NCBI GenBank assembly: GCA_964645315.1
Contig: CAZYBH010000003.1
Coordinates: 5,789-69,788 of the forward strand
Direction: 5' to 3'
Origin: an uncultured Candidatus Saccharibacteria bacterium
GTDB taxonomy: Bacteria; Patescibacteriota; Minisyncoccia; Phycocordibacterales; PALSA-1337
DNA: 64,000 bases
Position numbers and translations under genes: made by a program. The notes under the pieces are model-generated. The model was not told the DNA's origin, did no database searches, and was given only the letters and a program-made list of their open reading frames with translations. Position 1 is the stretch's first letter, and each line of letters opens with the position of its first letter. This document shows positions 4,299 through 47,920 of this stretch, one piece after another.

Positions 4299-4327
4299 TT
4301 GACAATCATTATGTGGTATGCTATAAT
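4299..4327 (+). promoter_or_regulatory. consensus sigma70-type promoter (TTGACA-17 bp-TATAAT)
   Basis: ttgaca at 4299..4304, 17-bp spacer, tataat at 4322..4327. Faces away from leuS. Confidence 0.55.
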
Positions 4328-4333
4328 TGAAGT

Positions 4334-4563
4334 AGATGAATACCACCCAAATAACGACGTTCACGGGAACGCCCGAAGTCGCGGCCAGGAAGGCCGAGGA
4401 GTTGTTTGATGTCCAGAAGCTGGACATCAAACAGACTCTAGTCAATACGTCCACTACGTTGGTGGACGGGAAACTCATTCTGACCATCGTTGTAATCTGG
4501 ACCCGTCCGGTCTAGTAACAACGAACGCATCGCGTTCCCTCCGGGGGGCGCGATGATTTTTTT
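4334..4563 (+). ncRNA. candidate small structured RNA (family unassigned) or leaderless mRNA for a 59-aa ORF (4336..4515)
   Basis: Begins about 7 nt after the -10 box and ends in an intrinsic terminator. About 55% GC inside a roughly 35% GC genome. Contains a perfect 14-bp hairpin at 4403..4433 (tgtttgatgtccag-aag-ctggacatcaaaca) and further hairpins (cgttcacgggaacg, ggcc-aggaa-ggcc, gacggg...cccgtc). ORF 4336..4515 reads MNTTQITTFTGTPEVAARKAEELFDVQKLDIKQTLVNTSTTLVDGKLILTIVVIWTRPV, just under the track's size cutoff. Confidence 0.4.
4528..4563 (+). terminator. rho-independent terminator (catcgcg...cgcgatg stem followed by T7)
   Basis: GC-rich hairpin followed by a ttttttt run. Confidence 0.65.
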
Positions 4564-4580
4564 ACAAACATTTTATGGAA

Positions 4581-5587: not shown

Positions 5588-6784
5588 CTAAACCTTAAAC
5601 TCAATAACATCACCATCTTTGACGACATACTCCTTACCTTCAATGCGAAGTAGACCTTTTTCGCGAGCAGAGGCATACGATCCTGAAGCGAGCAATTTGT
5701 CCCATTCAATAACTTCTGCACGAATAAATTTGTCTTTGAAATCTGTGTGAATAGCTGTACCCGCAAGAGGTGCTGTCCAACCTCGCTTGATGGTCCAGGC
5801 TCTAGTCTCATCTTCCCCAGTAGTAAAATAGACAATTAGATTCAACAAATCATAGCCAGTTCGAATAAGATTATTTATACCATCCCCCTTCGCCAAGGCT
5901 TCGGGGGACAGGTCCTCCTTCGCCAAGGCTTCGGGGGACAGGTCCTCTTTCGCTGAAACGAGTTCAGACGAGGCTGGAGAGATCGTTTCTCCAACCAAGG
6001 CTTTTCTCATTTCTTCTTTTTCCTCATGATCGAAATCTTTCAATTCATTTTCGATACCAGCATCAACGACTACCCATTTGGAATTATTATTTTGAAAAAA
6101 ACTAATCAAAGCCTTATAGCGCTCATCATTCAATTCATCCAAATTTTTGCCACCACTTTTTTTATTCAAAACATAAAGAATTGGCTTTGATGTTATCAAA
6201 CATAATTGTTTCAAATATGGTTCTTCAAATTCATCTACTTTGACCGTAGAAGCCAGTTTACCAGATTCGAGTATAGGAATAATTTTGTCCAATAGACCCA
6301 TTTCCAAAATCGCTTCCTTTCTACCTGATTTGAAGTCTTTTGAAAGATTACTCTTTCTCTTTGTCACGGTAGCGAGGTCTGCCATTATCAATTCAAGATT
6401 GATAACTTCTATATCCTTGAGTGGATTGATCTTGCCGTCGACATGGATGATATTGTCATCCTCGAAAATCCTTACTACTTCTGCAATAGCATCGGTCTCT
6501 CTAATGTTTGATAAAAATTGATTGCCCAGACCCTCTCCTTCTGATGCGCCTTTGACCAAGCCAGCAATATCGACAAATTCGATAGCGGCAGGAATTGTCT
6601 TTGCAGATTTTGAAAAATGAGATAATTTCCAAAGTCGCTCATCAGGAACAGCAACAACTCCGACAGATGGATCGATAGTAGCAAATGGATAATTTGCAAT
6701 AAGAACGCTCTTTTTTGTAAGCGCGCTAAAAAGGGTTGATTTTCCCACATTTGGCAGACCGACTATTCCGATTGATAGAGACAT
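5588..6784 (-). CDS. ychF: ribosome-binding ATPase YchF (Obg-like GTPase family)
   Basis: GIVGLPNVGKSTLF (G1 motif). C-terminal TGS-like region AWTIKRGWTAPLAGTAIHTDFKDKFIRAEVI. Start taken at MSLSIGIVG (6784). Confidence 0.9.
   Translation of the reverse strand: MSLSIGIVGLPNVGKSTLFSALTKKSVLIANYPFATIDPSVGVVAVPDERLWKLSHFSKSAKTIPAAIEFVDIAGLVKGASEGEGLGNQFLSNIRETDAIAEVVRIFEDDNIIHVDGKINPLKDIEVINLELIMADLATVTKRKSNLSKDFKSGRKEAILEMGLLDKIIPILESGKLASTVKVDEFEEPYLKQLCLITSKPILYVLNKKSGGKNLDELNDERYKALISFFQNNNSKWVVVDAGIENELKDFDHEEKEEMRKALVGETISPASSELVSAKEDLSPEALAKEDLSPEALAKGDGINNLIRTGYDLLNLIVYFTTGEDETRAWTIKRGWTAPLAGTAIHTDFKDKFIRAEVIEWDKLLASGSYASAREKGLLRIEGKEYVVKDGDVIEFKV
5889..5953. repeat. 30-bp in-frame tandem repeat x2.1 inside ychF (encodes AKEDLSPEAL repeats)
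   Basis: The unit cttcgccaaggcttcgggggacaggtcctc occurs twice in a row at 5889..5948, followed by a partial third copy. Confidence 0.8.
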
Positions 6785-26558: not shown

Positions 26559-27110
26559 TTAACCTAGGATTTCTTTTTCTTTTTTGGAATAATGGTCGTC
26601 GAGCTTCTTATTTGTATCATCGACGAGCTTTTGGGTATCGTTTTTGAGACGGAAGATCTCATCCTTGCCATAACCACCATCCTTCTCCTTGTTCTGTAGA
26701 TCTTTGATAATCGAATCGCGATGACCCCTGACTTGCTTCTTTGCTTCTTCAAGTCTATCTTTTGCAGTCTTGGCAATGTCTTTGCGTCTATCTGCGGTAA
26801 GTTCTGGGAAATTGATCCTCAATCCCTGATCATCGACGACGACAGATAGACCGAGATTTGCTACTGTAATGGCCTTTTCGATGTCTTTTGATTGACTTTT
26901 GTCCCAAGGAACAATCCTCAATGTCCTAGCACCTTCGATAGTGACGCTTGCGAGCTCTTTGAGTGACATCGGCGCACCATAGACTTCGACTTTGACCCCA
27001 TCAAGTATCTGAGGTGAAGCCTGTCCAGTCCTTATCTGAGAAAACTCCTTTTTGAGCCAATCTTCGGCACCTGCTAGCTGTTTTTTGAATGGGTTGAAAT
27101 CGTATGCCAT
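26559..27110 (-). CDS. frr: ribosome recycling factor
   Basis: QIRTGQASPQILDGVKVEVYG is characteristic of RRF. 183 aa. Confidence 0.9.
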   Translation of the reverse strand: MAYDFNPFKKQLAGAEDWLKKEFSQIRTGQASPQILDGVKVEVYGAPMSLKELASVTIEGARTLRIVPWDKSQSKDIEKAITVANLGLSVVVDDQGLRINFPELTADRRKDIAKTAKDRLEEAKKQVRGHRDSIIKDLQNKEKDGGYGKDEIFRLKNDTQKLVDDTNKKLDDHYSKKEKEILG

Positions 27111-27212
27111 ATATTTTATTTAATGATAATGTAACTATAGTATATCACAAGAATGAATTATCAAGTTTTTATTTGAACCTAAGCTGAATTTGTTATTTTT
27201 ATTTGACCAGAC

Positions 27213-27379
27213 TTGACCCAAGAGGAGGTGTGTTTTTTATTTTTTTGTGACAACGAGTTATGCGATTGGTGCGTCAGTCTACTAAACATTCAGGCAGAAG
27301 ATTGTTTGCATACCAAGAACTCGGATGAGTAATACGCAGTTGCACAAAAAAATAAAAAACACACCTCCTCTTGGGTCAA
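27213..27379. repeat. perfect 37-bp inverted repeat flanking a 93-nt spacer (MITE-like or large RNA hairpin)
   Basis: Left arm 27213..27249 is ttgacccaagaggaggtgtgttttttatttttttgtg. Right arm 27343..27379 is its exact reverse complement. The arms carry SD-like (AAGAGGAGGTG) and anti-SD-like (CACCTCCTCTT) sequences. Confidence 0.8.
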
Positions 27380-27402
27380 TCAATAGTATTGCAAAATGTA
27401 AG

Positions 27403-28092
27403 TTAAATGCTCAAAGCTAAATATTCCAAAAGCATTTTTAGCGATGGTGCTCGGTCATTTATATAACGATTGACTATACTAATATTTTCCAACTTCTTAG
27501 CATTTGCAACCAATTTATTTTCATTATGTAAGATCTCTTCCAATCTTTGGACAAATAGAATTGCATAATGTTTGGATATTTTGTCCTTCGAAATATCATC
27601 ACAAATCTTTTTTACCATCTCCAATCTTTTTGCCTTATTTTGCTTAATAAATTTTGTAACCAAATCAGTCAATTCGACTTCATTACTTTCCACATCCCGA
27701 TCATATTCCAAAAAATATAACCTCGATCGCACTGTAGGCAAAAGCAATCCAGCACTCGGTACAACTATGAAAAAGTGAGCATAGCCCGCGGGTTCTTCCA
27801 ATAGTTTGAGTAAAGCATTTTGCGCTTCCACTGTAATATTTTGAAAAAATAAAATAAAAATCTTTTTTGAATTTACTCCGATAGGCTTAGTTTCATGAAG
27901 ATTTTTGATATGTCTAGCGTCATCGATAGTGAAATTTTCGTATTTATTTGAAATAAAATCCGGATTTCCTTCTTTTTTAATTTCAAAATCACTGACCAAA
28001 ACCTGACAGAGCAAATCTACACTAGACTCATCCCCAATAAGTCCGTATGAATTTAATTCTAAATTATTCAGTTCTAATTTTATCTTTTGCAT
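27403..28092 (-). CDS. holB: DNA polymerase III delta' subunit-like (clamp-loader subunit without Walker A)
   Basis: ALLKLLEEPAGYAHFFIVVPSAGLLLPTVRSRL resembles the LLKTLEEPP...I.SRC clamp-loader motif. Confidence 0.65.
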   Translation of the reverse strand: MQKIKLELNNLELNSYGLIGDESSVDLLCQVLVSDFEIKKEGNPDFISNKYENFTIDDARHIKNLHETKPIGVNSKKIFILFFQNITVEAQNALLKLLEEPAGYAHFFIVVPSAGLLLPTVRSRLYFLEYDRDVESNEVELTDLVTKFIKQNKAKRLEMVKKICDDISKDKISKHYAILFVQRLEEILHNENKLVANAKKLENISIVNRYINDRAPSLKMLLEYLALSI

Positions 28093-28105
28093 AGGCGTAG
28101 GAGGG

Positions 28106-29119
28106 TTACCTCTTAGAAATCATCGCCTTCTTATATACATCCAAATGCTCAAGTGCTATACCCGTACCCTTGACCACGCAATATAGAGGCTCTTCTGCAA
28201 GCTTAGCTTTGACTCCCGTCCTACGGAAAACTAATTCTGGTAAATTTCTAAGCATAGAAGATCCGCCAGTGAGAGTGATGCCCTGATCTATTATATCAGC
28301 CGCCAACTCTGGCGGTGTATCTTGCAAAACATCACGAATAGCCTTGATCATATCCCGAAGCGGATTTGCCAAAGCTTTGACTATCTCATTTGTCTTGATC
28401 TCTACAGATCTTGGCAGACCGGAGATATAATCACGTCCTTTGACCATCATACCCAACTCTTGGTCGAGCGGTACCGCCGAACCTATCTCAATCTTGATGA
28501 TTTCGGACATATGATCTCCGATAGCCAAATTAAAATTCTTTTTGATGTAATCTGCAATAGCTAAGTCCATTTTGTTTCCCGCGCATTTGACCGACGTCGA
28601 AGAGACTATACCTCCAAGAGATATCACCGCCACATCAGTCGTACCGCCACCGATATCGACGACCATATGACCCCGCGCCTCATTGATCGGTATACCGGCA
28701 CCGATCGCCGCAAGGACCGGCTCTTTGACTACATAAGCGTTTTTTGCTCCGGCTTTGATAGTGGCTTCGATGACCGCCCTTCTCTCGGTCGAACTTATGC
28801 CAGCTGGTACAGATACGATAATATCAGGACGAAAAAATGAATACTTACCCAAAGCCTTATCTATGAAATATCTAAGCATTGCCTCTGTGATGTGATAATC
28901 AGCGATCACTCCATCGCGCATCGGACGATAGGCGATGATATCATCTGGAGTCCTTCCGATCATTTCCTTGGCCTCATTGCCCACTGCCAAGACTTTTTTT
29001 TCGGTCTCGGAGATAGCGACCACAGAAGGCTCATTGAGGACTATGCCTTTCTTGGGAACGTAGACAAGGGTATTTGCCGTACCCAAATCGATTCCAAGTT
29101 TTGGAGAAAAAAAGCTCAT
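28106..29119 (-). CDS. mreB: rod shape-determining protein MreB
   Basis: GIDLGTANTLVYV N-terminus and actin-fold motifs (DIGGGTTD). Confidence 0.9.
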   Translation of the reverse strand: MSFFSPKLGIDLGTANTLVYVPKKGIVLNEPSVVAISETEKKVLAVGNEAKEMIGRTPDDIIAYRPMRDGVIADYHITEAMLRYFIDKALGKYSFFRPDIIVSVPAGISSTERRAVIEATIKAGAKNAYVVKEPVLAAIGAGIPINEARGHMVVDIGGGTTDVAVISLGGIVSSTSVKCAGNKMDLAIADYIKKNFNLAIGDHMSEIIKIEIGSAVPLDQELGMMVKGRDYISGLPRSVEIKTNEIVKALANPLRDMIKAIRDVLQDTPPELAADIIDQGITLTGGSSMLRNLPELVFRRTGVKAKLAEEPLYCVVKGTGIALEHLDVYKKAMISKR

Positions 29120-29473: not shown

Positions 29474-29525
29474 CGCTTATTTAAGCGTAGAACCGGATAA
29501 ATAGTTCACTAAACAAAAGTCTCGA

Positions 29526-29650
29526 AGCACACCTATTCTGAGAGGCTCCGCAGAAATTTTTAGCAAAAAATTTCGAGGATTAAGCAAAAACTCTGCAGAG
29601 TTTTTGCGGCCTCGAGGAATAGGTGTGCGGAGAGATTTTTGTCTAAAAAA
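29526..29650. terminator. nested inverted repeats between convergent genes (gcacacctattc ... gaataggtgtgc arms; inner perfect palindrome aaactctgcagagttt)
   Basis: Seen directly. T-runs flank the inner hairpin. Lies between the 29473 (+) stop and the murA (-) stop. Confidence 0.4.
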
Positions 29651-29667
29651 TAACTATTCAGAAGGTT

Positions 29668-30993
29668 CTACTTAACTCTATCGATATCTGCCCCGATCGC
29701 TCTCAACCTAGTCTCTAAACTTTCGTATCCACGATCTATAAGATGGATATTTGAAATTGTAAATTTACCTTTTGCAACAAGACAAGCAAGGACGATAGCA
29801 AAACCAGCGCGAATATCATGAGCAGTTAGCTCCACATGTTCAAAATGAGAAAGTGGTGTAGGCCCATTGATCAAGGCCTTATTGCCGTCGATAATATTTA
29901 TGCACGCACCCATTTGCACTAGATCATGAGCGTATTTGAAGCGACCTTCGAATATAGTCTCGACTACCGTACTTTCACCTTCACATTGAGTAAGATAGGT
30001 CACAAGCGGTGACTGAAGGTCTGTTGCAAAACCAGGATATTCTTTTGTGACTACATTGAATGGTCGAAAAGCATTGTTATTTTTATTTGAAATTTTGATC
30101 GAACCCTCCTCACCATCTTTACCGATAATCTCAATATCGGCACCTGATTTTTTCAACAAATCAATCACTAGAGTTAGATGATCAGGGCGACAATCGTCTA
30201 TATAAAGTTCTTCGGCCAGCAACGCTCCGAGAAACAAAAAACTACCCGCCTCAATCCTATCTGGTATTGCACGATAAGCAACGCTTGTATTCAACAACTT
30301 TCCACCATTGCCATTTATGATAATAGTATCCGTACCCAAGCCTTGAATATTGGCTCCATTTTGATTTAACCAATGACCGACATTCTCTATCTCAGGTTCT
30401 TTGGCACAATTTTTCAATATTGTCTTACCATTTCCCAAGACCGATGCCATCATAAGAGTCTCGGTACCGCCGACCATTATCTTGGCAAAAGTTATCTCAG
30501 TCCCTATTAGTCTATCTGCTTCTATATAATATATTTCATTTTCCAATCGAACTTTTGCCCCCATTTTCTTGTAACCATCGATAAAGAGATCGATCGGTCT
30601 TGCACCTATCACACAACCACCTGGTGCTGGGAATGAGACTTTGCCAAATCTCGCCAACATCGGGCCAGTCAGTACCACCGACGCTCTCATCGATCTTGCT
30701 TTGTCTGGATTGATATCGGTTTTGCCTATCGTACTTGTATCTATATATAGAGTCTTAGTCAATGGATTATTATCCTTCCATTCTATCTTTGCTCCCAAAT
30801 CCTGCAAGATTTCGTTTAGCGTATGTACATCTTCGGTATTGGGTATATTATTTAGCTCGACTTTGCCCTGAAATAAAACCGCACCCGCCATTGCTTTCAA
30901 AGCAGCGTTTTTTGCGCCATTTATATATACTCTACCCTTCAAGGTTCTTTGACCTGCCAAGCCTTTAATTACAAACTTTTCTTTTTTATTCAT
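29668..30993 (-). CDS. murA: UDP-N-acetylglucosamine 1-carboxyvinyltransferase
   Basis: EPSP-synthase fold. KNAALKAMAG ... GGCVIGARPIDL ... catalytic Cys region typical of MurA. Confidence 0.9.
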   Translation of the reverse strand: MNKKEKFVIKGLAGQRTLKGRVYINGAKNAALKAMAGAVLFQGKVELNNIPNTEDVHTLNEILQDLGAKIEWKDNNPLTKTLYIDTSTIGKTDINPDKARSMRASVVLTGPMLARFGKVSFPAPGGCVIGARPIDLFIDGYKKMGAKVRLENEIYYIEADRLIGTEITFAKIMVGGTETLMMASVLGNGKTILKNCAKEPEIENVGHWLNQNGANIQGLGTDTIIINGNGGKLLNTSVAYRAIPDRIEAGSFLFLGALLAEELYIDDCRPDHLTLVIDLLKKSGADIEIIGKDGEEGSIKISNKNNNAFRPFNVVTKEYPGFATDLQSPLVTYLTQCEGESTVVETIFEGRFKYAHDLVQMGACINIIDGNKALINGPTPLSHFEHVELTAHDIRAGFAIVLACLVAKGKFTISNIHLIDRGYESLETRLRAIGADIDRVK

Positions 30994-37668: not shown

Positions 37669-37994
37669 TCCGGAGTAGCTCAGCGGTAGAGCAGTCGCCT
37701 GTGGAGTTCGCAGCTTCCACAAGAAATTGTGGATGACAAACGAGGTGAATTCGGGGAAACCCCAAATGTAAATAAGGGCAATCCCGAGCCAATCCCATCT
37801 TTGTGATGGGCAGGTGTAGAGACTATCCTTTCCAGGAGTAGTGCGAAGTGAAATATCTTCAAACGAAGCGCCTCGTCCCTAAATTATCAAGTTGGAAACT
37901 CGATAACATGGGAATGATATAGTCCGTCCCTATTAGTAATAGTAGGATAAGCGTAAGCGATTGGTCACAGGTTCGAATCCTGTCTCCGGAGCCC
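37669..37994 (+). tRNA. tRNA-Asn (GUU) interrupted by a group I intron; exons 37669..37702 and 37954..37994
   Basis: Exons splice to UCCGGAGUAGCUCAGCGGUAGAGCAGUCGCCUGU|UAAGCGAUUGGUCACAGGUUCGAAUCCUGUCUCCGGAGCC. U1-A72, G73 and anticodon loop CUGUUAA match bacterial tRNA-Asn (compare B. subtilis tRNA-Asn). Anticodon stem is GUCGC/GCGAU. Confidence 0.8.
37703..37953 (+). ncRNA. group I intron (~251 nt) in the tRNA-Asn anticodon loop, between anticodon positions 35 and 36
   Basis: Conserved core elements: P-like AAUUCGGGGAAA, Q-like AAUCCCGAGCC, R-like GGUGUAGAGACUAUCC, S-like AUGAUAUAGUCC (P7 GACUA/UAGUC). P9 hairpin with GUAA tetraloop. The 5' exon ends in U, which pairs with G37710 in a short P1. 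The intron ends in G (37953). Confidence 0.7.
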
Positions 37995-39614
37995 TAGTGA
38001 CGAAACCTCACATTTTGTGGGGTTTTGTCTTTTATTGCTTGATATTTTAGAGGTTCGAGCGCGCTCTAATTCTTCTTCGACCGCCTGACGACTTTTGATG
38101 ATCGTTTTAATGAAAGAATGGTAATTTACAAAGACCTTTTTGCCTTTTAGGGTGAGGTTCGAGCCAAGGCATGCGAGTATCGCTCTTTTGGCTTTATCAT
38201 CTCCTTTTTCAAACCAAATGTGGGCGTAGCAAGCGAAGTCAAAGGTCTGCTCGGTGAGTTCCACCCACTCCAATACCTCTCTGTTTTTCGTCTTCAATTC
38301 TTCTTCGAGTGCCAGTTTCTTTTTTACTATTCCAACCTTGAGCGTTTGGTATTCTTCATCAGTAATTATCGCTCGCTCACTGTTTGCTGGCGAGGTGAAG
38401 TTGAGTGTCAGTGACTGCAAATTCTTGGTGACTTCCTCAAGCTCTTTGTGCTTGCCTTTGAGGACCACAGAATCGCTGTCAACTTCTGTTTTTCGCAGTT
38501 CATGGAGGTGCTTGATTGCCCAGTCTTTGAATCTTTCCGAAATGGTGATCTCACTGAGCTTTTGTTTTATATCAAGTTCCAAGTTCTTAAGCTCTATCAC
38601 TTTCTCCGGACACTTCACGTCTACTTTTTTCTTGGTGCAATTGTAGTAAACGTAGTGGTGAACATTGCCGTTCTTACATCGCTTTACTTTCGCCTGTGCA
38701 GTGATACTACAGCCACACGTGCCGCATTTCATAAGCGAGGTGAAGGCAAAGCTGCGCTCTGGCCGAGGTCGTGGTTGCATGGTTCTTCCCATGATCTGTT
38801 GGACCTTATTGAATTCTTCTTCGGTTATCATGGCTTCATGTGCGCCTTTGTGCCATTCTCCGCTTTTGTAGGGATATTCAAACCAGCCGTAATAAAAGGG
38901 GTTGCTTAGGAGTGCATAGATGCCGCTTTTAGAAAGATGCTTGCCACCCATATTTCTTCGTTGATACGTTTTCAAATTCAACTCCTTACGAGCCACATCC
39001 CATATTTGAATTGTGCTGTAGTTACCGGTAAGCATGAGGTCAAAGAGTCTCTTTACCACAGGAAAACGTTCAGGGTCCTTCATGATGGTCTTGAATCCTT
39101 TTTCTCGGTCTGGTGTGCTCATATATCCCACAGGACACATGCTTGGTAGCCAGCCTTCTCGGACCTTCTTTGCAAGACCTCGCTTTACGTTTACTGATAA
39201 GTCTCTGATGTACTGGTTGGCCATGCCAAGCTCAACTTGCATCATGAGGACATTGTCCGTTGGGTAGTATGTTCGGCCGAATGTCACAATCTGTGCGATT
39301 GCACTTTGCTGTAGCATCCAGCTTATTTGTCCACCGTCCACAGGGTTGCGTGCAAGGCGGTCCAGTTTCCAACAGATGATTCCATTCGCTTCGCCTTTGT
39401 AAATTCTCTCAAGCATTTTGTTGAATACTGGTCTTCCTGGTTTCTTGGCCGATTGTGATTCGGTAAGGACCTCAACTATCGCCAAGCCTTGCTCTTCTGC
39501 AATCTTCAAGAGTTCATCTTTCTGAGCATCGATTGATGCCGCTTGTCTGTCTTCCGCCTCGCTTGATTTACGAGCGTAGAGGAAGTATTTGATTGTAGGT
39601 GTTTTATTATTCAT
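37965..39614 (-). CDS. large serine recombinase (resolvase/invertase-type catalytic domain + recombinase domain + zinc-ribbon)
   Basis: IKYFLYARKSSEAEDRQ...SIDAQ (catalytic Ser) and LDRLARN motifs. C-terminal Cys-rich region. The 3' end overlaps the last ~30 nt of the tRNA-Asn gene. Start taken at MNNKTPTIKY (39614). Confidence 0.85.
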   Translation of the reverse strand: MNNKTPTIKYFLYARKSSEAEDRQAASIDAQKDELLKIAEEQGLAIVEVLTESQSAKKPGRPVFNKMLERIYKGEANGIICWKLDRLARNPVDGGQISWMLQQSAIAQIVTFGRTYYPTDNVLMMQVELGMANQYIRDLSVNVKRGLAKKVREGWLPSMCPVGYMSTPDREKGFKTIMKDPERFPVVKRLFDLMLTGNYSTIQIWDVARKELNLKTYQRRNMGGKHLSKSGIYALLSNPFYYGWFEYPYKSGEWHKGAHEAMITEEEFNKVQQIMGRTMQPRPRPERSFAFTSLMKCGTCGCSITAQAKVKRCKNGNVHHYVYYNCTKKKVDVKCPEKVIELKNLELDIKQKLSEITISERFKDWAIKHLHELRKTEVDSDSVVLKGKHKELEEVTKNLQSLTLNFTSPANSERAIITDEEYQTLKVGIVKKKLALEEELKTKNREVLEWVELTEQTFDFACYAHIWFEKGDDKAKRAILACLGSNLTLKGKKVFVNYHSFIKTIIKSRQAVEEELERARTSKISSNKRQNPTKCEVSSLGLRRQDSNL

Positions 39615-40452
39615 ATGCGCTTTTAATGTTATCTTCCGACCGTTTTTCACCGTTTTTAAATGGTGGTTTTTGCTCTATGGCAGTTACATTATCGTCACTG
39701 CGTGGTTCCCGTAATTTTCCCGTTATTTCGGGAAAGGTCGTCTCACCGGGCTGACGAACGACAGTATCCCCAGAAGGGTCTCGAATAGCAACTGATTCCT
39801 GACTTCTTGGCATCTGCCATTTCTGCATTGTTCCCCTTAACACATCTCCAATGTGAGTTACAGAATTAGGAGAGTTTTTTCTTAGGTTAGTTAGAGTTTC
39901 ATTATCATCACTGCGATATGGTCGCTTATTGTAACTGCGAGGGCGTTGTTTTTGTAACTGCGGTGGTGCCTCGGATATCTTTATTTTTCGATTCCAGTTA
40001 GGGACCGGCAACCATAGCTCGCTCGCATGGAAAGTGTAGAGATTTACCATGTTGAACATACCATCAGCTCTCGTAACGCCGATAATGCCGTAGCCTTCGA
40101 GGATGCGAATTGCCTTAATGATGCTACTTCTGTTTTTACTGCCGACGAGTTCCTGAATGGTAGTGATACTTGGAAACGCCGCCTGGCTTTCGGTGTTGCA
40201 GTGGACCAAAAGCGCCATATATACTGACGTACATAACTTTGAGAGTGTTGCAAGATATCCGCCTTGCACATATTCGTTATCAACGAAGAACCTGCTCGAC
40301 TTATTCTTTTTGCGAAGTTTGGACCGATCTATCTTGTCATGCAGTCTGTTGAGGTAGGCTTTCTTTTGATTGTGGTTGAGGTCCTTTCTTGTTTTTGATT
40401 TGTCTCTTAGTATCCACTCGATCAATTCCTTGTCGTTTTCCATATTCTTCAA
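39607..40452 (-). CDS. hypothetical protein with central HTH-like segment (possible replication/regulatory protein)
   Basis: FPSITTIQELVGSKNRSSIIKAIRILEGYGII resembles a winged-helix/HTH. The N-terminal region overlaps the 40337..40600 ORF in another frame. Confidence 0.45.
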   Translation of the reverse strand: MKNMENDKELIEWILRDKSKTRKDLNHNQKKAYLNRLHDKIDRSKLRKKNKSSRFFVDNEYVQGGYLATLSKLCTSVYMALLVHCNTESQAAFPSITTIQELVGSKNRSSIIKAIRILEGYGIIGVTRADGMFNMVNLYTFHASELWLPVPNWNRKIKISEAPPQLQKQRPRSYNKRPYRSDDNETLTNLRKNSPNSVTHIGDVLRGTMQKWQMPRSQESVAIRDPSGDTVVRQPGETTFPEITGKLREPRSDDNVTAIEQKPPFKNGEKRSEDNIKSAYE

Positions 40453-40600
40453 GCCACGCTTTCTTTATTGGTCGGTAGACGAAGTTAAAAAGCGTGAGCA
40501 AATTAATTGCCTCATTAGCAAGAACGTCATCAGGAAAGACTGTGCCGGTTTCTTCCAGGTGAAGTTGTTTATATTCTTCTAGTGCGTGTTTGGTAAGCAT
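40337..40600 (-). CDS. hypothetical small protein (87 aa); possibly the 5' part of a frameshifted gene together with 39607..40452
   Basis: Track ORF. Overlaps the next ORF by 116 nt in a different frame. Confidence 0.3.
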   Translation of the reverse strand: MLTKHALEEYKQLHLEETGTVFPDDVLANEAINLLTLFNFVYRPIKKAWLEEYGKRQGIDRVDTKRQIKNKKGPQPQSKESLPQQTA

Positions 40601-40630
40601 AATGAGGGGTTCGACCTTTTGTATGAGGTA

Positions 40631-40669
40631 GTGCTCTTCCCAAGAAACAGAAAGAGCTGAGCCCCCATT
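40631..40669 (-). terminator. hairpin aaagagctgag...ctcagctcttt (11-bp stem)
   Basis: Seen directly, between the HerA 3' end and the next minus-strand gene. Confidence 0.4.
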
Positions 40670-40870
40670 GCAAGTTGACTCAGCTCTTTCCGTGCAATGG
40701 GTATCTTTATCCTAGAATCGAAATTCGTACTAAATGTAGGAATTACTTCTCTAAGATGATCTCATCGTACTGCTCTCAAACGGTAAAAAATGGTGCATTA
40801 CTTTGACCGCTTGAAATAAGGGTATTTTCGTGAATTTCGGTGGTTACTGTGCCATAGACGCAAAAACCCC

Positions 40871-40897
40871 TGAATAGGGGTTGAAAAGCGTACACAG
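40871..40897 (-). terminator. rho-independent terminator just after the HerA stop (cccccuauucagggg + U-run on the minus strand)
   Basis: + strand aaaaacccctgaataggggg. On the minus strand the hairpin is followed by uuuuug. Confidence 0.6.
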
Positions 40898-40914
40898 GGG
40901 CGTTTAGGGGGTAA

Positions 40915-42789
40915 TTAGGCTTTCTTCCACAGATCATCTAAATCTATCGTACCACTTTGAGGCCTTCGTTTCTTATCAAGAAGCTTAATTTTTAAAGAAA
41001 GTGGAAATTGAGTCATTTGTCCAGCAATAAAACAGCAACCTGTAGCAAGGTTTGAAATCGAGTCAAAAGAAAGCTTATCCAAATAACTTACCGCCTTATT
41101 AACTGACTTTAAATCATTTTCGTTCATCAATTTGTGAATAAAATAATTATGAAGCTGAGAAATTATGGTGGGAGAAATATCAGATGGTCTCTGACTAGCA
41201 ATTGTAAGAAAAACTCCAAACTTTCTACCTTCCTTTATTATTTCCTCAAACGTTTCTAGACGATAATCTTTCCAAGTTTCAGACTCTCTTACAGAGTTTT
41301 CAGATAAAATGTTATGTGCCTCGTCAATAATAATATGGAGGGATGTATTATTTTTATAAGTTTTTTTCTGATTCTCGTATAACTTTTTTAGAATGACTAA
41401 TGGCAAAGATTTTTTAATATCTCTATTGGCAGATTTTAGATCTATAACTACCAAGTTGTTGCCTTTTCCAAAAATATTCTTTTTAGCATTTGTACTAGTG
41501 TCAAAGACTTTCTGAATGCTTTTTTTGACACTTTCAAGTCTAGTTATGCAATGATAGACGTGGTCATCGTGAACTCTGTTATCTAGCAAATCATAAAGTA
41601 ATTGCATTCTTGCAAAGTCGAGGAACTTTTCAATTATATTGTCAGGAAATACATAAGTATCTGCCTGAGTATAAAATACTTGTGATTTATATTGCTCGTC
41701 AGTTATCTGGTCATAATCAGTAGTTCCACCACATTTAAAGTATGAATGGGTATTATGCCATTCAGGAATAACAAAATCTTGGTTGTCAGTTTCAATCTTA
41801 AGTATTTGTTTGTATCGATCTATACACAAAAATGCCAGTTCTTTATTTTTTAATTTCAAAATTCTGAGCGCTATTAACTTCAAGTTATTTTTGAAATAGT
41901 CATTAGAATTGTTTTCTTTTGTTATCTTTTTAAATAAGCTTATCGAGCGATTCAAAAATGGCTTTTGTGTTTTTTCACTAGCACCAGAAAGTATTGATAT
42001 AAGTTCAATATCAATAAAACCATTTTCGTTCAAAGGAACACGATTTTTGTTATTTATTTTTTCTAACTCAATTTCAGTATTAAGTTTATATACTTTTTTC
42101 TTTTTACTAAGAACATCTGAAGATGAGTATTCACCATTAAAATCAATAAATATAAACTTGGATTTGGATTTAAATTTTTCATTAAGATTTTCTAATCCAA
42201 ATAGTTCTGCATACATTTTTGCAAGAGTATTTGATTTACCAGACCCTGTATTGCCAAAAATACCAATATGACCTGCAAATAGTTTTTTAGCTGAAATTGA
42301 AATATCTTGAGTCTCTTCATCAATCAGTGATCCAAGGGTAACGGAAAGCTCTTTTTCATCAGAAAGCTGATGTAATATTTCAAATTCTTCTCTAGAAAGA
42401 AGTTTACATTCACTACCAATTAGAGGCATTTCTTTGATACCGTGTTGAAAGTTAAAATCGCTATCATAGAATCCAAAAACTGAAACATTGAGAAATCGGC
42501 TTATCTTCTTATTCTCATTTGTATATTTTTTCTTAGTTTGATATCTATCCTCTTCGAGATACTCACCCTCGACTTTACAAATTATTTCAGTAAAACCTTT
42601 AACTATTTTCACATAGTTGGATAGCCCAACAGAAACATTTTTTATTGTTCTACCTTTAAAAAATAGATGAGGGAGATTCTTGTCATTCTTTACCTTAACA
42701 ACAATATCTTTGCCCTTAACACTAAATACACTGCCAATGGTAAATACGGAATTATCAACTAGTCTTTCATGTAAATTAAAGTTGTTCAT
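40915..42789 (-). CDS. herA: HerA-like (DUF87/FtsK-HerA superfamily) ATPase, SIR2-HerA defense system component
   Basis: Walker A IGIFGNTGSGKSNTL and Walker B LHIIIDEAHNIL (DEAH). Start taken at MNNFNLHERL (42789), which overlaps the SIR2 stop by 14 nt. Confidence 0.8.
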   Translation of the reverse strand: MNNFNLHERLVDNSVFTIGSVFSVKGKDIVVKVKNDKNLPHLFFKGRTIKNVSVGLSNYVKIVKGFTEIICKVEGEYLEEDRYQTKKKYTNENKKISRFLNVSVFGFYDSDFNFQHGIKEMPLIGSECKLLSREEFEILHQLSDEKELSVTLGSLIDEETQDISISAKKLFAGHIGIFGNTGSGKSNTLAKMYAELFGLENLNEKFKSKSKFIFIDFNGEYSSSDVLSKKKKVYKLNTEIELEKINNKNRVPLNENGFIDIELISILSGASEKTQKPFLNRSISLFKKITKENNSNDYFKNNLKLIALRILKLKNKELAFLCIDRYKQILKIETDNQDFVIPEWHNTHSYFKCGGTTDYDQITDEQYKSQVFYTQADTYVFPDNIIEKFLDFARMQLLYDLLDNRVHDDHVYHCITRLESVKKSIQKVFDTSTNAKKNIFGKGNNLVVIDLKSANRDIKKSLPLVILKKLYENQKKTYKNNTSLHIIIDEAHNILSENSVRESETWKDYRLETFEEIIKEGRKFGVFLTIASQRPSDISPTIISQLHNYFIHKLMNENDLKSVNKAVSYLDKLSFDSISNLATGCCFIAGQMTQFPLSLKIKLLDKKRRPQSGTIDLDDLWKKA

Positions 42790-43789
42790 CGTCTTTATCC
42801 GGTTCAAGGACCTCTTGTTCTTTATTTGTGAATATACCAGAAAGGAATTCTGTGCTTTTTTCAAATGGCAAATTATTTTCTACATAGAAGTTTGACTTTT
42901 TCTTTTCCTCTAGATCATCTACCACTTCATCGTATTCTTTGTGATAAAGATAAACTACTATTAGGGTCGGATTGTTCTTCATTACACCGTAAAGTAACTC
43001 TCTTATATGTTTATCTTTAAGAGAAAATCCTAATATAAACAAAACACTATTTTCTTTTTCCAGCTCTAACGTAAACTTCCTTAGCATGGAAGCGTAATTA
43101 GTATCTAGAACTGTTTCAAGGTGTTTTTCTGCATTTGGATTGATGACAGCAACTTGTTTATACCCTGTAGCAAAATCATTCCCGGTTTTACTATCCAGAT
43201 CATCAGCAATATGCGAACCATTTGAATAGATGATTTTTTCCTCTTTTGTCTTCCAAGAAAGTGAACCGTGAAGTTTAATGATATTGAAAAGTGGAATGTC
43301 GGAAGTGTTATCAAATTGAAGGCTCTTATATTTTTGAATTTTGTTAAAATTTGCCACGCTAAATACTGAATTGATTTGCCCGGCAAATCCATCATTGTAC
43401 GGTATACCTAAACGCTCACAGGCATCTTCTATAAACATGTCAAAGTTCGTGCTGAAAATATTGACTTGTTTATTTACGATATGTAATGATCGACGGGAAA
43501 TAGTATCAGCCCAAAAATTTAAAAATGTATCATAGTTCTGTTTGGTTTTAGTAAGCTTACCTTGTTCTGCCACATCCACCTCAAAGGTTGAATTTAGAAT
43601 AGCTTTTGATTTGCGGATGATCTTATAATAATCTTTTTGTGCGACCTCTTTGGTAGCATCATTATTCATTCGGTTTTCAATGTCTTGCAGGGTCGAAAGA
43701 TAGTCAAGAGAACAACCAGAACCAATAAGTAGATTTATGTGGCCACTTTGAATTATTTCTTTGAGTTCTTTTTTATCGATTTTTTTCAT
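42776..43789 (-). CDS. SIR2-like NADase domain protein, SIR2-HerA defense system component
   Basis: INLLIGSGCS (GAGIS-like), FSTNFDMF (TQNID-like) and IIKLHGSLSW (catalytic HG) motifs. Lies immediately upstream of HerA in the same orientation. Confidence 0.8.
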   Translation of the reverse strand: MKKIDKKELKEIIQSGHINLLIGSGCSLDYLSTLQDIENRMNNDATKEVAQKDYYKIIRKSKAILNSTFEVDVAEQGKLTKTKQNYDTFLNFWADTISRRSLHIVNKQVNIFSTNFDMFIEDACERLGIPYNDGFAGQINSVFSVANFNKIQKYKSLQFDNTSDIPLFNIIKLHGSLSWKTKEEKIIYSNGSHIADDLDSKTGNDFATGYKQVAVINPNAEKHLETVLDTNYASMLRKFTLELEKENSVLFILGFSLKDKHIRELLYGVMKNNPTLIVVYLYHKEYDEVVDDLEEKKKSNFYVENNLPFEKSTEFLSGIFTNKEQEVLEPDKDDEQL

Positions 43790-46101
43790 ACTTTTAATTT
43801 GACCCACTCACTCCAATCACCACGTTCGCATTTTTCCCAGTTGTAAGTAGATTCTTGGTTTAATGTCCAATCTCCATTTCTCTCAATCACAACACCACCA
43901 AAAAGCTTTTTATTCTTCTGGGTCTTTATGTATTGGTACAAAGCCTCAGCCTTAGCTTTTGTGTAAGTTTTACCATCACGATCACCTGAATCCTTTACTT
44001 CAAATATACCGATCTTTCCATCAGTGAATTGGACCAGATAGTCCGGATAGAAAGTATAGATAGCACCAGAGTATTCATACTTCACGCCAAAGTATTCCTG
44101 TTTGTTTTCTCCATTTTTCCACCACCAAGTTATTTTTGAGCTATTATCATTCAAAAACTTCTCAAAAGATTTCTCGGGTAGGGATCGGTCAATGTTTAGG
44201 TAGCATGGCTGATAGGCATACTTTTTGGTAGGAACAATTTCATCAGTAAATTCGTTATAAAAAAGCTCTATAGGGAGTTCAAAAGCATATTTCTTTTCGC
44301 TTTCTTCTACTCGCTTTCGGACCTCAGCCTCTTTGACCGTCTTGTATTCATCGACTGCCTTAGTAAGAATCTTTTCAATCGCTGGACGATTGTCTTTGTG
44401 CATACAAAGCTTTTGAATGAGGAGTATTTCCTCATGCCAATCTTCTGAATTGAGGTATTTTCTGAACCACAAATAAATAGCAGTCTTTACGCTTGGAATA
44501 GAGCGCTTAACATTTCTAAATGGACCGAGCTGTGACTTAATCATTTGCTCAAAGAAAATCTGCAATTCATCAGCAGCAACACTAAGCTTTGCCATAGCAG
44601 TGGGATCTATATTTCCTTGAAGTTCATCAAAGTTTTTAGCACTGATATGAGTGTCAGCAATAATTTGTTGCTGGTACTTTTCAAGCTCAACATCAATACC
44701 CATATTCTTGAGTGACGTCTTGATCTTCACCAGTTTCTCACCATCTTCTATACCAAGTTCTCTGTTTACTACCTTTTCAAATACCGGCGTAAAGCTTGAG
44801 GTGATGTCTCCGTAATCAGCACGTGCTTTATAGTAAGAATCAATTTTGAGCGGCTTATACTCCTTAACTCTATTAGCCTTTAGATGTTTGATTATGTTTG
44901 GATTGTATTCTTCTTTCTTAACTGAAATAGATTCCAAGTTTGTATAGATGTAACCACGATTAAGAGCCTCATTTTCATAATGCTTTTGTTCTGGCATACG
45001 TAAGATTCGTCCGACAGTCTGTATTTCAAAAACAATATTCGAAGATTCTCTAAACTTCACAAGAATATGAGCACGAGGACAGTCCCATCCAGTATCAATT
45101 GCTTGTTTGAATATCAAAAACTCAATCTGATTGTCCGATTCAGAAATCCACTCGATAGTGTCTGATTTTTGTTCAGCAAGCCAAATAGCAAGCTTTCCAT
45201 TTTTCTCTGTAATACCCTTATCACCAAGAAACTTTTTAACAGCATCAATCTTTTGATCACCAGCCTCGGATGTAGGAATCTGTATTAAGACAAGAGGATT
45301 AATATCAGAATCTTCTTTTGCAAAAGCCTTCTTAAGTTCAAGACGTTTTTTATATGCCGCCTCTAAGACTGCTGTCTGTGAATCATCTTCTGATTTTGCA
45401 ATCTTCTCAATATCCTCATTGATGATGAGCTCTTTCTTAATCATCCCTTCTTCGATAACGTCTTTTGGATTCACCTTTACCAATCCAGCGCGAGTTTCAA
45501 CAATATCTTCAGCTGTAATTTTTATACTTGGTGTGGCACTCATTTCAATCGTTACATCGGCAGCAATAAGCTCACGAAGTTCCTGAGCGCGACCTGTAGA
45601 TGCGTTGGTGTGACTCTCATCAATAATAAGAATTATCTTTCTCTGTTCTTTAGTTTTTTCAAGTACATCACGGAAATTAAGTTTCTCACCATCTTTCATG
45701 GCGAGGTTTTTCCAATCACCAGACTTACCATCCTTGGCACGTAGTTTTTCCCAGTTTGCCACTACGACTTCATTCTGAACAATACGCTCTCTACCACCAC
45801 TAAATTCACCCTCAACAAGTGAGACACGAGGAAAACCCCCGAAGATTCGCTCGAGAGATCGCTTACTCTGTCCATGAAGATCACCTTTACCAATACTCAT
45901 CCAAATAAAACAAAGATCTTCGTTTGGAAGTTCTTTTATAAGACTCTCTATAAAAATAGCAGTCATGACAGTCTTGCCTGATCCGGTAGGGGCTTGAAAT
46001 ACACAAACTTCACCAGGACCGTCAAAATCCAAAAGTTTAACTGTCGTGTCAACAAGCTGGTTGACTGCTTTTTCTTGATAGGGTTTTAAATTAATACTCA
46101 T
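43786..46101 (-). CDS. res: Type III restriction enzyme Res subunit (SF2 helicase + C-terminal PD-(D/E)xK nuclease)
   Basis: FQAPTGSGKT (motif I), IIDESH (motif II), MSATP (motif III), QTVGRILR (motif VI), and C-terminal PDYLVQFTDGKIGIFEVKD. Confidence 0.85.
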   Translation of the reverse strand: MSINLKPYQEKAVNQLVDTTVKLLDFDGPGEVCVFQAPTGSGKTVMTAIFIESLIKELPNEDLCFIWMSIGKGDLHGQSKRSLERIFGGFPRVSLVEGEFSGGRERIVQNEVVVANWEKLRAKDGKSGDWKNLAMKDGEKLNFRDVLEKTKEQRKIILIIDESHTNASTGRAQELRELIAADVTIEMSATPSIKITAEDIVETRAGLVKVNPKDVIEEGMIKKELIINEDIEKIAKSEDDSQTAVLEAAYKKRLELKKAFAKEDSDINPLVLIQIPTSEAGDQKIDAVKKFLGDKGITEKNGKLAIWLAEQKSDTIEWISESDNQIEFLIFKQAIDTGWDCPRAHILVKFRESSNIVFEIQTVGRILRMPEQKHYENEALNRGYIYTNLESISVKKEEYNPNIIKHLKANRVKEYKPLKIDSYYKARADYGDITSSFTPVFEKVVNRELGIEDGEKLVKIKTSLKNMGIDVELEKYQQQIIADTHISAKNFDELQGNIDPTAMAKLSVAADELQIFFEQMIKSQLGPFRNVKRSIPSVKTAIYLWFRKYLNSEDWHEEILLIQKLCMHKDNRPAIEKILTKAVDEYKTVKEAEVRKRVEESEKKYAFELPIELFYNEFTDEIVPTKKYAYQPCYLNIDRSLPEKSFEKFLNDNSSKITWWWKNGENKQEYFGVKYEYSGAIYTFYPDYLVQFTDGKIGIFEVKDSGDRDGKTYTKAKAEALYQYIKTQKNKKLFGGVVIERNGDWTLNQESTYNWEKCERGDWSEWVKLKV

Positions 46102-47920
46102 AAATTTGTTTGTATACGTCTAGAATCTTTTGTGGAATTGGCTCGACCGTAACATCTTTCCATCCACTAAAATCTTTTTTATTTAATCCAAGAGGATCAA
46201 GAGTAAAACAGTAGAGAATCTTTTCTCCTTCGATCTTACTTAAATCCTTTTTAAGTTCTGATAAGGCCTTCCGATCTAGGGAATAGTAGGCGGCAAGAAC
46301 CCTATTACCTTTCTGGAATACTCTATAATCATCAGTTGTTTTTACTTCATCAAAAATACCTTCACGTAGACAAAGCATTTCTGTACATTCCTTTGTCATA
46401 CGGATCTTCAAATCATCTTTGTTTGCAGTTTTCTTGATGAATTTAGTTTTGAAGTATTTTAGAGATCCTACACCAGTATTTGTGAGAACATTGTTTAATC
46501 TAGGATATGTTTTTTCGAGACAAATATTTTCTTCATTATTTGTACATAAAATAAATTTATGTTGCGTACCTTTATCCTTATTAAGCTCTACAACCGCATG
46601 GCCTGTTGATCCACTTCCTGCAAAAAAGTCTAGAATTGTCGCATTATCATCTGAAACAAAATGAATTAGTTGCTTTATCAATCTAATTGGTTTTTTACCA
46701 TTCTTAAAATCAATCCCACCTTCTTTAGCAACGTTACCCATATCAAGATAAAAGCCTGGCCACCAGTCACCCCTGATAGTAGTTACACCGTAAGTTTGGT
46801 AATAGTCATCAGCCTTTCTAACTTTATCTGATAAGCGAATTCTTTGTTTATATTCTCCCTTACCGTTATATCCAACTAAATAAGATCGATCATTTGAGCC
46901 ATACTCAATTAAGATACCCTCTTTAACTTTAGATAGAACTTCTTTGTCTTTTATCTCTACAGTATCGTGAATACGAACAATCTGATCTGCTTTTTTATTT
47001 ATAAAATCTCTTACTTCATCAAGTTTTGCATAAGCATCAGAGATTTGATTATTAGTCATCGATCTCTTTCCTTTTGAATCTTTAGCTAAATTCAAAAAAC
47101 ATAATTTTTCAAATATCTTGTTATCCGCACATAAAACGCTTGTGAGTGATGTCTCTGAATAAGTTCCATCCGTATTTTTATTTATAAACAGGGAGTAGTG
47201 ATTGTCGTATTCAATCGGATCGTACAAAACATTTTTTCCGATAGTCTTTCTTCCATCTTTTGAATACACAAGAATATACTCGGCATTTTTTACTATATTA
47301 CCCATCTTTGCTGATCTTACTTTTTGACCTTGGACCGTAGACATCTGAACGTGCAAAGTGGTAACAAAATTATTTAAACCAAAAACCTCATCGCACAGTA
47401 GTCTAAGCTGAGACTGTTCATTGTCATCTATCGAAATAAAAATAACTCCAGTCTCTCTCAGTAGATTTTTTGCTAATCGCAACCTTTTTGACATGAAAGA
47501 CAACCATTTGCTGTGTTTATATTCGTCCTCACTATCAACATAATTGTCGTTATAAATAAAATCCCTATTACCAGTGTTGTAGGGTGGGTCAATATAAATA
47601 ACATCAACTTTTCCTTGATGAGTGAAATTTAAGACAGAGAGTGCATGGTAGTTATCGCCCTCAATCAATATGTTTACTGGTCTAGTGTCGTCTTTGTCAG
47701 TAATTTCTTTTCCTTTTACTTCCTTAAGAACTGGTAGTGCATTTTCGGCATCTTTCTCGAACTGTTCTTTCACCTTATCTTCATCCCAGATAAGTCCATA
47801 TTTCTTTCGAGATTCAAGCTTTTCTACAATTTTAATTAGATCCTCTTTGCTAAGGTTGGAATAATCTTTCTTTGAATTCTTATTGGTTGCAATGGGATTC
47901 ATTACACAACACTTTACCAT
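46091..47920 (-). CDS. mod: Type III R-M Mod subunit (beta-class N6-adenine DNA methyltransferase)
   Basis: DPPY (motif IV: IYIDPPYNTGN) precedes motif I FxGxG (ILDFFAGSGSTG). Overlaps the res start by 11 nt. An alternative start is MNPIATN at 47902. Confidence 0.85.
   Translation of the reverse strand: MVKCCVMNPIATNKNSKKDYSNLSKEDLIKIVEKLESRKKYGLIWDEDKVKEQFEKDAENALPVLKEVKGKEITDKDDTRPVNILIEGDNYHALSVLNFTHQGKVDVIYIDPPYNTGNRDFIYNDNYVDSEDEYKHSKWLSFMSKRLRLAKNLLRETGVIFISIDDNEQSQLRLLCDEVFGLNNFVTTLHVQMSTVQGQKVRSAKMGNIVKNAEYILVYSKDGRKTIGKNVLYDPIEYDNHYSLFINKNTDGTYSETSLTSVLCADNKIFEKLCFLNLAKDSKGKRSMTNNQISDAYAKLDEVRDFINKKADQIVRIHDTVEIKDKEVLSKVKEGILIEYGSNDRSYLVGYNGKGEYKQRIRLSDKVRKADDYYQTYGVTTIRGDWWPGFYLDMGNVAKEGGIDFKNGKKPIRLIKQLIHFVSDDNATILDFFAGSGSTGHAVVELNKDKGTQHKFILCTNNEENICLEKTYPRLNNVLTNTGVGSLKYFKTKFIKKTANKDDLKIRMTKECTEMLCLREGIFDEVKTTDDYRVFQKGNRVLAAYYSLDRKALSELKKDLSKIEGEKILYCFTLDPLGLNKKDFSGWKDVTVEPIPQKILDVYKQIYEY

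Follow-up and report, generated by a model that had tools for sequence, protein, structure and literature searches.

In the genome of an uncultured, ultra-small bacterium of the CPR/Patescibacteria, a long inverted repeat occupies the intergenic region between a holB-like gene and frr. The locus lies in a contiguous stretch of 64,000 nt (hereafter the window, that is, the whole stretch of DNA that was analysed), and all genes surrounding the element are on the minus strand, in the order murA, mreB, holB-like gene, element, frr, rseP and proS. A sequence-only reading of this DNA had placed the repeat between frr and holB, and the domain matches of the two neighbouring genes bear this out (Table 1). 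The element follows murA, mreB and holB at the 3' end of this gene string; in the sense direction it begins 23 nt past the stop codon of the holB-like gene and ends 48 nt short of a promoter-like site of frr, which is alternatively readable as TGATATACT with an extended -10. The 48 nt between the element and this site are hypervariable among strains, and the variant of this flank found in contig L008 has no further copy in the window. A tRNA/tmRNA scan gave no match at the element locus, and a replication origin or terminus at the element was rejected, the GC skew being monotonic across the window. In GTDB a single genome has the arm, under the label Candidatus Saccharibacteria, the named HolB relatives bear labels that are mostly Parcubacteria or Paceibacterota, and the sample accessions, consulted for the habitat, led to no citing paper.

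Table 1. Features of the holB-frr region and of the genes upstream of it (positions in the window; a dot marks features without a strand)
Feature	Position	Strand	Remarks
murA	29668-30993	-	Gene string upstream of the element
mreB	28106-29119	-	Gene string upstream of the element
holB-like, DNA polymerase III delta' (DNA_pol3_delta2)	27403-28092	-	PF13177; upstream neighbour
Arm A, holB side	27343-27379	-	Sense (minus) strand reads TTGACCCAAGAGGAGGTGTGTTTTTTATTTTTTTGTG; onset 23 nt past the holB stop codon
26-codon hydrophobic ORF (MFFIFLCNCVLLIRVLGMQTIFCLNV)	27282-27362	-	GTG start inside arm A
Spacer, 93 bp	27250-27342	.	Six variable sites among strains, at spacer positions 26-61
Stem extension CAAC	27251-27254	.	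Pairs with GTTG at 27339-27342; in the MFE structures and among the consensus pairs
Arm B, frr side	27213-27249	-	Exact reverse complement of arm A
Hypervariable flank, arm B to frr promoter	27165-27212	-	Window type and L008 type differ at about 14 of the 48 positions
frr promoter-like site TTGATA-16-TACTAT	27137-27164	-	Outside and downstream of the element; conserved in all strains
frr, ribosome recycling factor (RRF)	26559-27110	-	PF01765; downstream neighbour

An inverted-repeat search reproduced the anatomy first noticed in the sequence-only reading: two arms complementary at 37 of 37 positions enclose a spacer of 93 nt, 167 bp in all. This perfection is far above chance expectation; no other inverted repeat within 3 kb exceeds 78% complementarity, and a search that tolerated 3 mismatches located the initial 20 nt of the arm at just these two sites in the 64-kb window, with 0 expected in shuffles. 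Both strands were also folded, as the sequence-only reading had proposed, and either is predicted to form a structure of about -81 to -82 kcal/mol, with z-scores of -9.6 and -11.0 for the two strands against dinucleotide shuffles. In the MFE structures of both strands the stem gains four more base pairs (CAAC/GTTG) inside the spacer, beyond a 1-nt bulge at A27250. Sliding a 200-nt fold over the whole window gave a background mean of -40 kcal/mol (sd 10), and the element is one of only two low-GC giant hairpins in it.

The same locus was then compared among strains. Exact-protein look-ups with HolB, Frr and the members of the HolB 90% cluster gathered 12 further same-species contigs with the element, from at least nine other assemblies, and in all of them it lies in the 292-nt holB-frr spacer; an MreB look-up added no contigs. 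The strains differ at 1.3-4.8% of holB nucleotides and 1.3-2% of frr nucleotides, and their alignment reveals three arm haplotypes. Both arms are perfect (37 of 37) in the window, L015 and L018, of which L018 has a perfect arm despite carrying the flank type that it shares with L008, L017 and L019; in these last three the frr-side arm is mismatched at two outer positions, 2 and 8. L020 and L021 have CA in place of TT at arm positions 21-22, on both sides and with all 37 matches kept, and this is the sole change in an otherwise invariant holB-side arm; in L005-L007 the same two positions read TA in the frr-side arm, the only arm that these contigs contain. Expressed as pairs, positions 21-22 change on both sides, UA to CG and UA to AU, with the stem still paired at 37 of 37. 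Evolution of the two arms is therefore concerted, one double substitution having been copied from arm to arm, and information is evidently exchanged between them. Perfect arms had at first been taken to imply a recent origin or strong selection; the choice omits a third cause, concerted evolution of the arms, and this is the one favoured by the data. Because exchange between the arms would erase their differences, perfect arms need neither a recent origin nor selection on each base pair, and a perfect inverted repeat alone is no proof of recent insertion, mobility or selection at the RNA level.

The spacer of L020 and L021, once reverse-complemented, matches that of L005-L007 exactly (0 differences); it lies between unchanged flanks and is 93 nt long in both orientations. 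The orientation of the window is shared by ten other contigs, and the inverted one is confined to L020 and L021. These two are contiguous, free of Ns and identical to each other, although one is a megahit k=141 contig (L021), with a k larger than the arm, and the other a scaffold of another pipeline (L020); probably they stem from one sample that was assembled twice. A single inverted haplotype is known. Outside the spacer, 2-3 SNPs in about 130 nt separate the inverted contigs from the forward contigs of sister samples, and therefore different strains are being compared, not the phases of one clone. Among strains the spacer shows 3-5 differences per 93 nt, a divergence no lower than that of the flanking genes. 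The 57 spacer nucleotides beside the arms are invariant, a post-hoc observation; such clustering of all six variable sites hints at constraint and speaks against a purely neutral model.

An artefact of assembly or library preparation might lie behind the inverted orientation, or behind the repeat itself, and some properties of the data invite this suspicion. An assembler running at k below 38 has no means of fixing the orientation of the spacer, the Logan contigs L001-L004 and L016 (k=31) end 30 nt inside an arm, L013 (also from Logan) and the ENA contigs L005-L007 end 2-7 nt short of the inner edge of the far arm, chimeric PCR products are possible at inverted repeats, and the inverted form probably comes from a single sample. 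However, the repeat is assembled through in seven independent contigs and in the window, and the agreement of L020 and L021 spans two pipelines. The orientation of their spacer is taken as real because k-mers of 39 or more that cross flank, arm and spacer can only derive from reads. A fold-back chimera formed during PCR would be expected to place an inverted holB flank on both sides, whereas the frr flank is seen. In addition, the inverted contigs have their own CA haplotype in both arms as well as private flank changes, and therefore they represent a distinct, real strain. We consider an artefact extremely improbable. The positions of the contig ends would fit an under-representation of library fragments that contain both arms; the repeat breaks short-read assemblies at predictable points, which accounts for fragmented MAGs at this locus.

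The sequence-only reading had also raised the possibility of a miniature inverted-repeat transposable element (MITE), to be recognised by dispersed copies and target-site duplications. A MITE, or a solitary leftover of a mobile element whose terminal inverted repeats measure 37 bp, would have arrived by a single insertion between holB and frr, and the anatomy invites the comparison: like MITEs (about 100-600 bp), the element is short (about 170 bp), AT-rich and intergenic and has long, perfect terminal inverted repeats; the nearest other relatives of the bacterium, L009 and L012, lack it, and the flank of arm B is unusually variable. Against this, it is present once. No second copy was found in the window or in any fetched locus (up to 3 mismatches; blastn-short), and when 185,579 GTDB species genomes were scanned for the exact arm, the only match was the orthologous locus of the species representative, where one arm is exact. 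JGI metagenomes contained no related sequence by arm pattern or spacer pattern, an arm scan of IMG/VR yielded nothing related, and BLAST against phages and plasmids gave no near-identical element; the scans of these large collections require exact 20-24-mers, and copies more than about 10% diverged would escape them. One 18-20-mer arm match in IMG/VR (L014) sits in GC-rich, coding-like sequence and was dismissed as chance. At the borders (CCAGAC before TTGACCC on one side and GGGTCAA before TCAATA on the other) no direct repeat of 2-10 bp that could be a target-site duplication is present, the window contains no transposase with matching ends, and the position is identical in all strains. Thus, unlike MITEs, the element is single, fixed in place and without related copies anywhere searched, and we regard a mobile origin as very unlikely.

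The closest other organisms, whose HolB proteins are 54-57% identical, illustrate how narrowly the element is distributed. In L009 the holB-frr interval is an unrelated 373-nt spacer without it, and the corresponding stem-loop there is not statistically remarkable; in L012 a DUF3800 gene stands at the corresponding position, again without the element, and a compact hairpin with a GC stem and a U-rich run follows 10 nt past holB. Because these nearest other relatives are without it, the element appears, as far as the data reach, to be limited to one species-level lineage.

We then considered whether the inversion might be programmed. A site-specific recombinase that flips 93-167 bp could alter the expression of frr, of an RNA antisense to holB or of a small ORF, and the element resembles invertons, such as E. 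coli fimS, the polysaccharide promoters of Bacteroides fragilis and the RecV switches of C. difficile, in that inverted repeats bracket a short intergenic segment, here directly upstream of a gene, and that both orientations occur in natural strains. With a crossover in the outer arm the segment could measure up to 167 bp, a length found among the smallest known invertons. Next to the arms the spacer is invariant, and one feature depends on orientation, namely the 26-codon ORF, of which just 6 sense-strand codons are left in the inverted state. At a distance of 10.6 kb (37965-39650) lies a gene for a large serine recombinase of 561 aa. hsdS invertons and their invertases have been predicted in a few Saccharibacteria (PMC7672463).

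Other observations speak against a switch. Neither strand of the element contains a promoter-like (sigma-70) site, and the frr promoter lies outside it; TTGTCA and TTGCAC at the arm-spacer junctions were considered as -35 boxes and dropped, no -10 being present at a usable spacing. A terminator scan of 26900-27600 detected no intrinsic terminator, the T-runs being inside the stem. No other recombinase domain was found in 30 ORFs scanned around the locus (about 10 kb), and the 561-aa protein has the architecture of an integrase and belongs to a mobile/defence island beside a tRNA gene. On inspection, the arm lacks the internal dyad symmetry that recombinase dimers bind, and its sequence is found at no other locus, either in the window or in the GTDB scan. 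Unlike the repeats of known invertons, the arms are long, perfect and evolving in concert, and a double substitution in both arms requires gene conversion, which a site-specific crossover does not supply. The two orientations are seen in contigs of different samples and different strains, which give no indication that both coexist in one population. Moreover, frr is an essential housekeeping gene and as such an odd target for phase variation. We therefore think a programmed inverton unlikely, and for the more specific proposal of a phase-variable switch, in which the flip would move a small hydrophobic ORF or small-RNA template between the sense and the antisense strand of the holB-frr transcription unit or alter read-through into frr, we see a slim chance. 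A programmed flip would be of wider interest, since it would put an intergenic phase switch next to a gene essential for translation in a bacterium with a reduced genome. Surveys that identify invertons from repeats and two orientations should expect passive hairpin flips as look-alikes. Integron attC, retron, dif/Xer, protelomerase and plasmid sso sites were set aside as well: the locus has no RT gene, no R-box consensus, no central short spacer and no plasmid context.

Another possibility is that the element is a structured RNA gene, with a functional small RNA enclosed by the 37-bp stem, or a module resembling a type I toxin, in which a GTG-started 26-aa peptide begins in one arm and its ribosome-binding site is sequestered by the distal arm. 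The fold is very stable on both strands, and the arms contain the motif AAGAGGAGGTG along with its complement. The sequence-only reading had seen an ideal Shine-Dalgarno sequence in them and had suggested an SD-sequestering or decoy hairpin; motif and complement are indeed there, but inspection of the arm found no ATG, GTG or TTG at the normal 5-10 nt downstream of GGAGG, and no start codon at a usable distance from the Shine-Dalgarno-like AAGAGGAGG. The hydrophobic ORF is open in all four forward haplotypes, including one with a TAG to TAA change of its stop codon, and 5 of the 6 variable sites are unpaired in the consensus fold of the window's plus strand, a figure biased by the prediction of the structure from the same alignment. 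Of what a type I toxin-antitoxin module would have, an ORF and a sequestered SD-like motif are present, but no family match and no promoters were found.

Several observations argue against a role of this kind. The ORF shows 5 non-synonymous and 0 synonymous codon changes among strains, the part of the spacer that it occupies is the variable part, its hydrophobic codons arise by default from T-rich sequence, and the peptide has no Pfam match; the ORF is probably spurious. No Rfam family was detected at the gathering thresholds across the whole window, nor permissively in 27050-27460; the below-threshold matches are generic long-hairpin models of plant miRNAs, scoring 28-38 bits against thresholds of 99-245. 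The spacer contains GAACTCGGATGAGTAATACGC, which resembles a 5S rRNA motif; this resemblance was rejected, as its location within the molecule does not fit and the permissive Rfam run yielded no 5S match. A consensus fold of the strain alignment shows no covariation inside the spacer and is weak (-14 to -17 kcal/mol), and a separate transcript would have neither promoter nor terminator. In addition, the flip exchanges the strand of the spacer relative to flanking transcription, and a loop transcribed from outside would be turned into its complement; the decoy RNA is unsupported. We assign a structured RNA or toxin module very little probability.

The reading that we prefer, and hold to be slightly favoured overall, takes the element as a 3' hairpin of the holB transcript that is immobile, present in one copy and peculiar to this species, with a spacer whose orientation is neutral. 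Homology-driven exchange between the arms would remove their differences and occasionally flip the spacer, either by template switching of the DNA polymerase at the hairpin during replication or by RecA-type recombination or gene conversion, for which 37 bp exceeds the minimal homology. Among the options first listed for the element, a recombination site comes nearest to this, since the arms exchange information and the spacer has been inverted. At the RNA level, a sense transcript would form a hairpin of 37-41 bp 23 nt past the holB stop codon and upstream of the promoter of frr itself, and such a 3' stem-loop may act as a barrier to 3' exonucleases, as an RNase III target or as a leaky terminator. 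Both orientations may persist because a 3' stem-loop role would be independent of the orientation of the spacer, and the spacer indeed looks neutral, with gene-like divergence, no covariation and no orientation-specific signal. The element also occupies the same place as the ordinary GC-stem/U-rich hairpin of the relative L012. We infer both the copying process, be it polymerase switching or of RecA type, and the 3' stem-loop or processing role of the RNA. Past the stem, the sense strand continues with GTCTGGTCAAAT and the opposite strand with TCAATAGTATTG; neither has a U-tract, an observation that goes against the 3'-hairpin model.

Each half of the preferred reading, the arm exchange and the 3' hairpin, has counterparts in known systems. 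Homogenised arms together with an inverted spacer are a documented result of exchange between the arms of inverted repeats, through recombination or template switching. Template switching has been described to create and maintain perfect stems and to invert loops (PMC8794818), and the quasipalindrome mutations attributed to it share with the element the perfect arms kept by copying one from the other, the multi-base 'compensatory' changes in both arms at once, the replacement of a spacer by its exact reverse complement at unchanged length, and the need for neither a dedicated enzyme nor mobility (PMC8604942; PMC8794818). The scale differs: the arms in those papers measure about 5-16 bp, the loops 4-8 nt and the spacer changes 2-5 bp (PMC8604942; PMC8794818), whereas the element has 37-bp arms and a 93-bp spacer, is intergenic and belongs to a CPR bacterium. 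A 93-bp spacer far exceeds the few-nucleotide loop inversions of these papers, which, like the missing U-tract, speaks against a purely neutral model, and because it is so much longer than the inversions described, classical recombination may be needed in place of template switching; for classical recombination, in turn, a duplex loop of 93 bp would be sterically unfavourable.

The small inversions of plastid genomes are a second parallel. Their hairpins lie mostly downstream of genes, as this stem-loop lies just 3' of a gene, and the loop occurs either way round among close relatives; the two states have equal free energy, on which ground the flip-flop is regarded as neutral, and the hairpin is presumed to stabilise the 3' end of the mRNA, the role also suggested here (PMC6824564). 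In contrast, the plastid stems tabulated are smaller (for example, a 9-bp stem, with loops of 5-8 bp), the genome is that of an organelle, and the flips are recurrent (PMC6824564), whereas the holB-frr element needs one event only. Intrinsic terminators and REP-type 3' stem-loops likewise stand tens of nucleotides past a stop codon and ahead of the next promoter, but they differ from the 37-bp perfect stem of AT-rich/GC-mixed composition, with its 93-nt loop, no U-tract and no repetition in the genome. The element is therefore a new instance of a known sequence behaviour, namely arm homogenisation and spacer inversion, and it offers a clean natural case, from an uncultured CPR bacterium, of a long perfect palindrome that lasts through mutual correction of its arms, with an occasional flip of the middle.

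The other giant hairpin of the window lies 2.2 kb away, starts within the murA stop codon (about 29487-29671) and folds at -84.5 kcal/mol (z = -9.6), with two small perfect palindromes in its apical part. Compared with L015, L016 and L019, the window carries its core in the opposite orientation. Unlike the holB element, this hairpin is kept in distant relatives, whose HolB proteins are only about 55% identical: over 132 nt it shares 87% identity, in reverse complement, with a sequence in L009. Judged from these comparisons, long hairpins at gene 3' ends, with tops that flip, are a recurrent feature of the lineage. A kinship of the arms with the murA hairpin was rejected, the 9-mer that they share (AACACACCT) not being significant (73-113 of 300 shuffles were as good). 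If the phase-variable reading were extended to both, they would form a class of regulatory, flip-flopping giant hairpins in CPR bacteria, which we likewise doubt; the murA hairpin may all the same be the more interesting object of the two. In L015 its core is present as two tandem paralogous copies, and over 85 nt the L015 copy shares 94% identity with a sequence in L012.

The spacer between murA and mreB holds a second giant hairpin, which begins in the murA stop codon and has a folding energy of -84.5 kcal/mol (z -9.6). Its arms are long and imperfect, and its tip holds two small perfect palindromes whose stems vary compensatorily (AAAACCTTGCAAGGTTTT, AAAACTCTGCAGAGTTTT and AAAATGTTGCAACATTTT). 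Elements at the same locus in the two nearest other relatives, L009 and L012, match it at 87-94% DNA identity, whereas the HolB proteins there are only ~55% identical. Among same-species contigs, L015, L016 and L019 have the hairpin core in the orientation opposite to that of the window, and the locus of L015 carries two paralogous copies in tandem. The hairpin matched no Rfam family; possible readings are a structured RNA under conservation and a palindromic cassette that is exchanged horizontally.

The neighboring mreB-holB spacer differs in length among strains of the species, measuring 13 nt in the window strain versus 180-198 nt in L015, L017 and L019. The long form contains short repeats of the GGTAAAAGG type together with a perfect 16-bp palindrome (AGCTTCGTAGGGCAGG/CCTGCCCTACGAAGCT), and the strains are polymorphic here for the insertion or deletion of a small repeat element.

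At the perfect 37-bp inverted repeat between holB and frr, variation is concentrated in the 48 nt that separate the frr-side arm from the frr promoter, where ~14 positions differ between window-type strains and those resembling the same-species contig L008; unlike this flank, the arms, the spacer and the frr promoter are almost constant between the two types. A perfect arm occurs together with the L008-type flank in L018, and no further copy of that flank was found within the window. Short-read contigs break systematically at this repeat: the Logan contigs L001-L004 (k=31) end 30 nt into an arm, and L013 (Logan) and L005-L007 (ENA) end 2-7 nt short of the far arm, approaching from either side. 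These contig ends suggest that library fragments holding both arms are depleted.

Positions of the repeat, RNA and island features (window coordinates unless a contig is named)
Feature	Position	Strand	Remarks
murA-mreB giant hairpin	29487-29671	minus	
murA-mreB element in other contigs	L015:1154-1426; L009:1672-1800; L012:1710-1835		
Short mreB-holB spacer	28093-28105		
Long-form mreB-holB spacer	L015:2803-3000; L019:1430-1609		
Variable flank of holB-frr element	27165-27212		
Contig ends at holB-frr repeat	L005:1; L006:1; L007:1; L013:944; ends of L001-L004		
GC-rich intergenic stretch	4310-4580		several short perfect hairpins
TGCCCTCCGTAGCCTTGGCGAAGGAGG recurrence	3390-3416; 5884-5940		inverted
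tRNA gene interrupted by group I intron	37669-37991	+	Rfam Intron_gpI, 73 bits
Probable integrated island adjoining the tRNA gene	37965-47920	minus	

Folding energy reaches its window minimum, -93.9 kcal/mol per 200 nt, in a GC-rich intergenic stretch. The 27-nt GC-rich sequence TGCCCTCCGTAGCCTTGGCGAAGGAGG is present again in inverted orientation ~2.5 kb away, and together with the hairpins this recurrence looks like a REP-like repeat family.

The tRNA gene interrupted by a group I intron was missed by ARAGORN; its 5' half is TCCGGAGTAGCTCAGCGGTAGAGCAGTCGCCT, its 3' half is ...GCGATTGGTCACAGGTTCGAATCCTGTCTCCGGAG, and a canonical terminator follows. The adjoining region, probably an integrated island, encodes a large serine recombinase of 561 aa (Resolvase, Recombinase and Zn_ribbon_recom domains), an HTH_36 protein and two gene pairs that look like defence genes: one consists of a HerA-like DUF87 ATPase and a SIR2_2 protein, the other of a ResIII helicase and an N6_N4 methylase.
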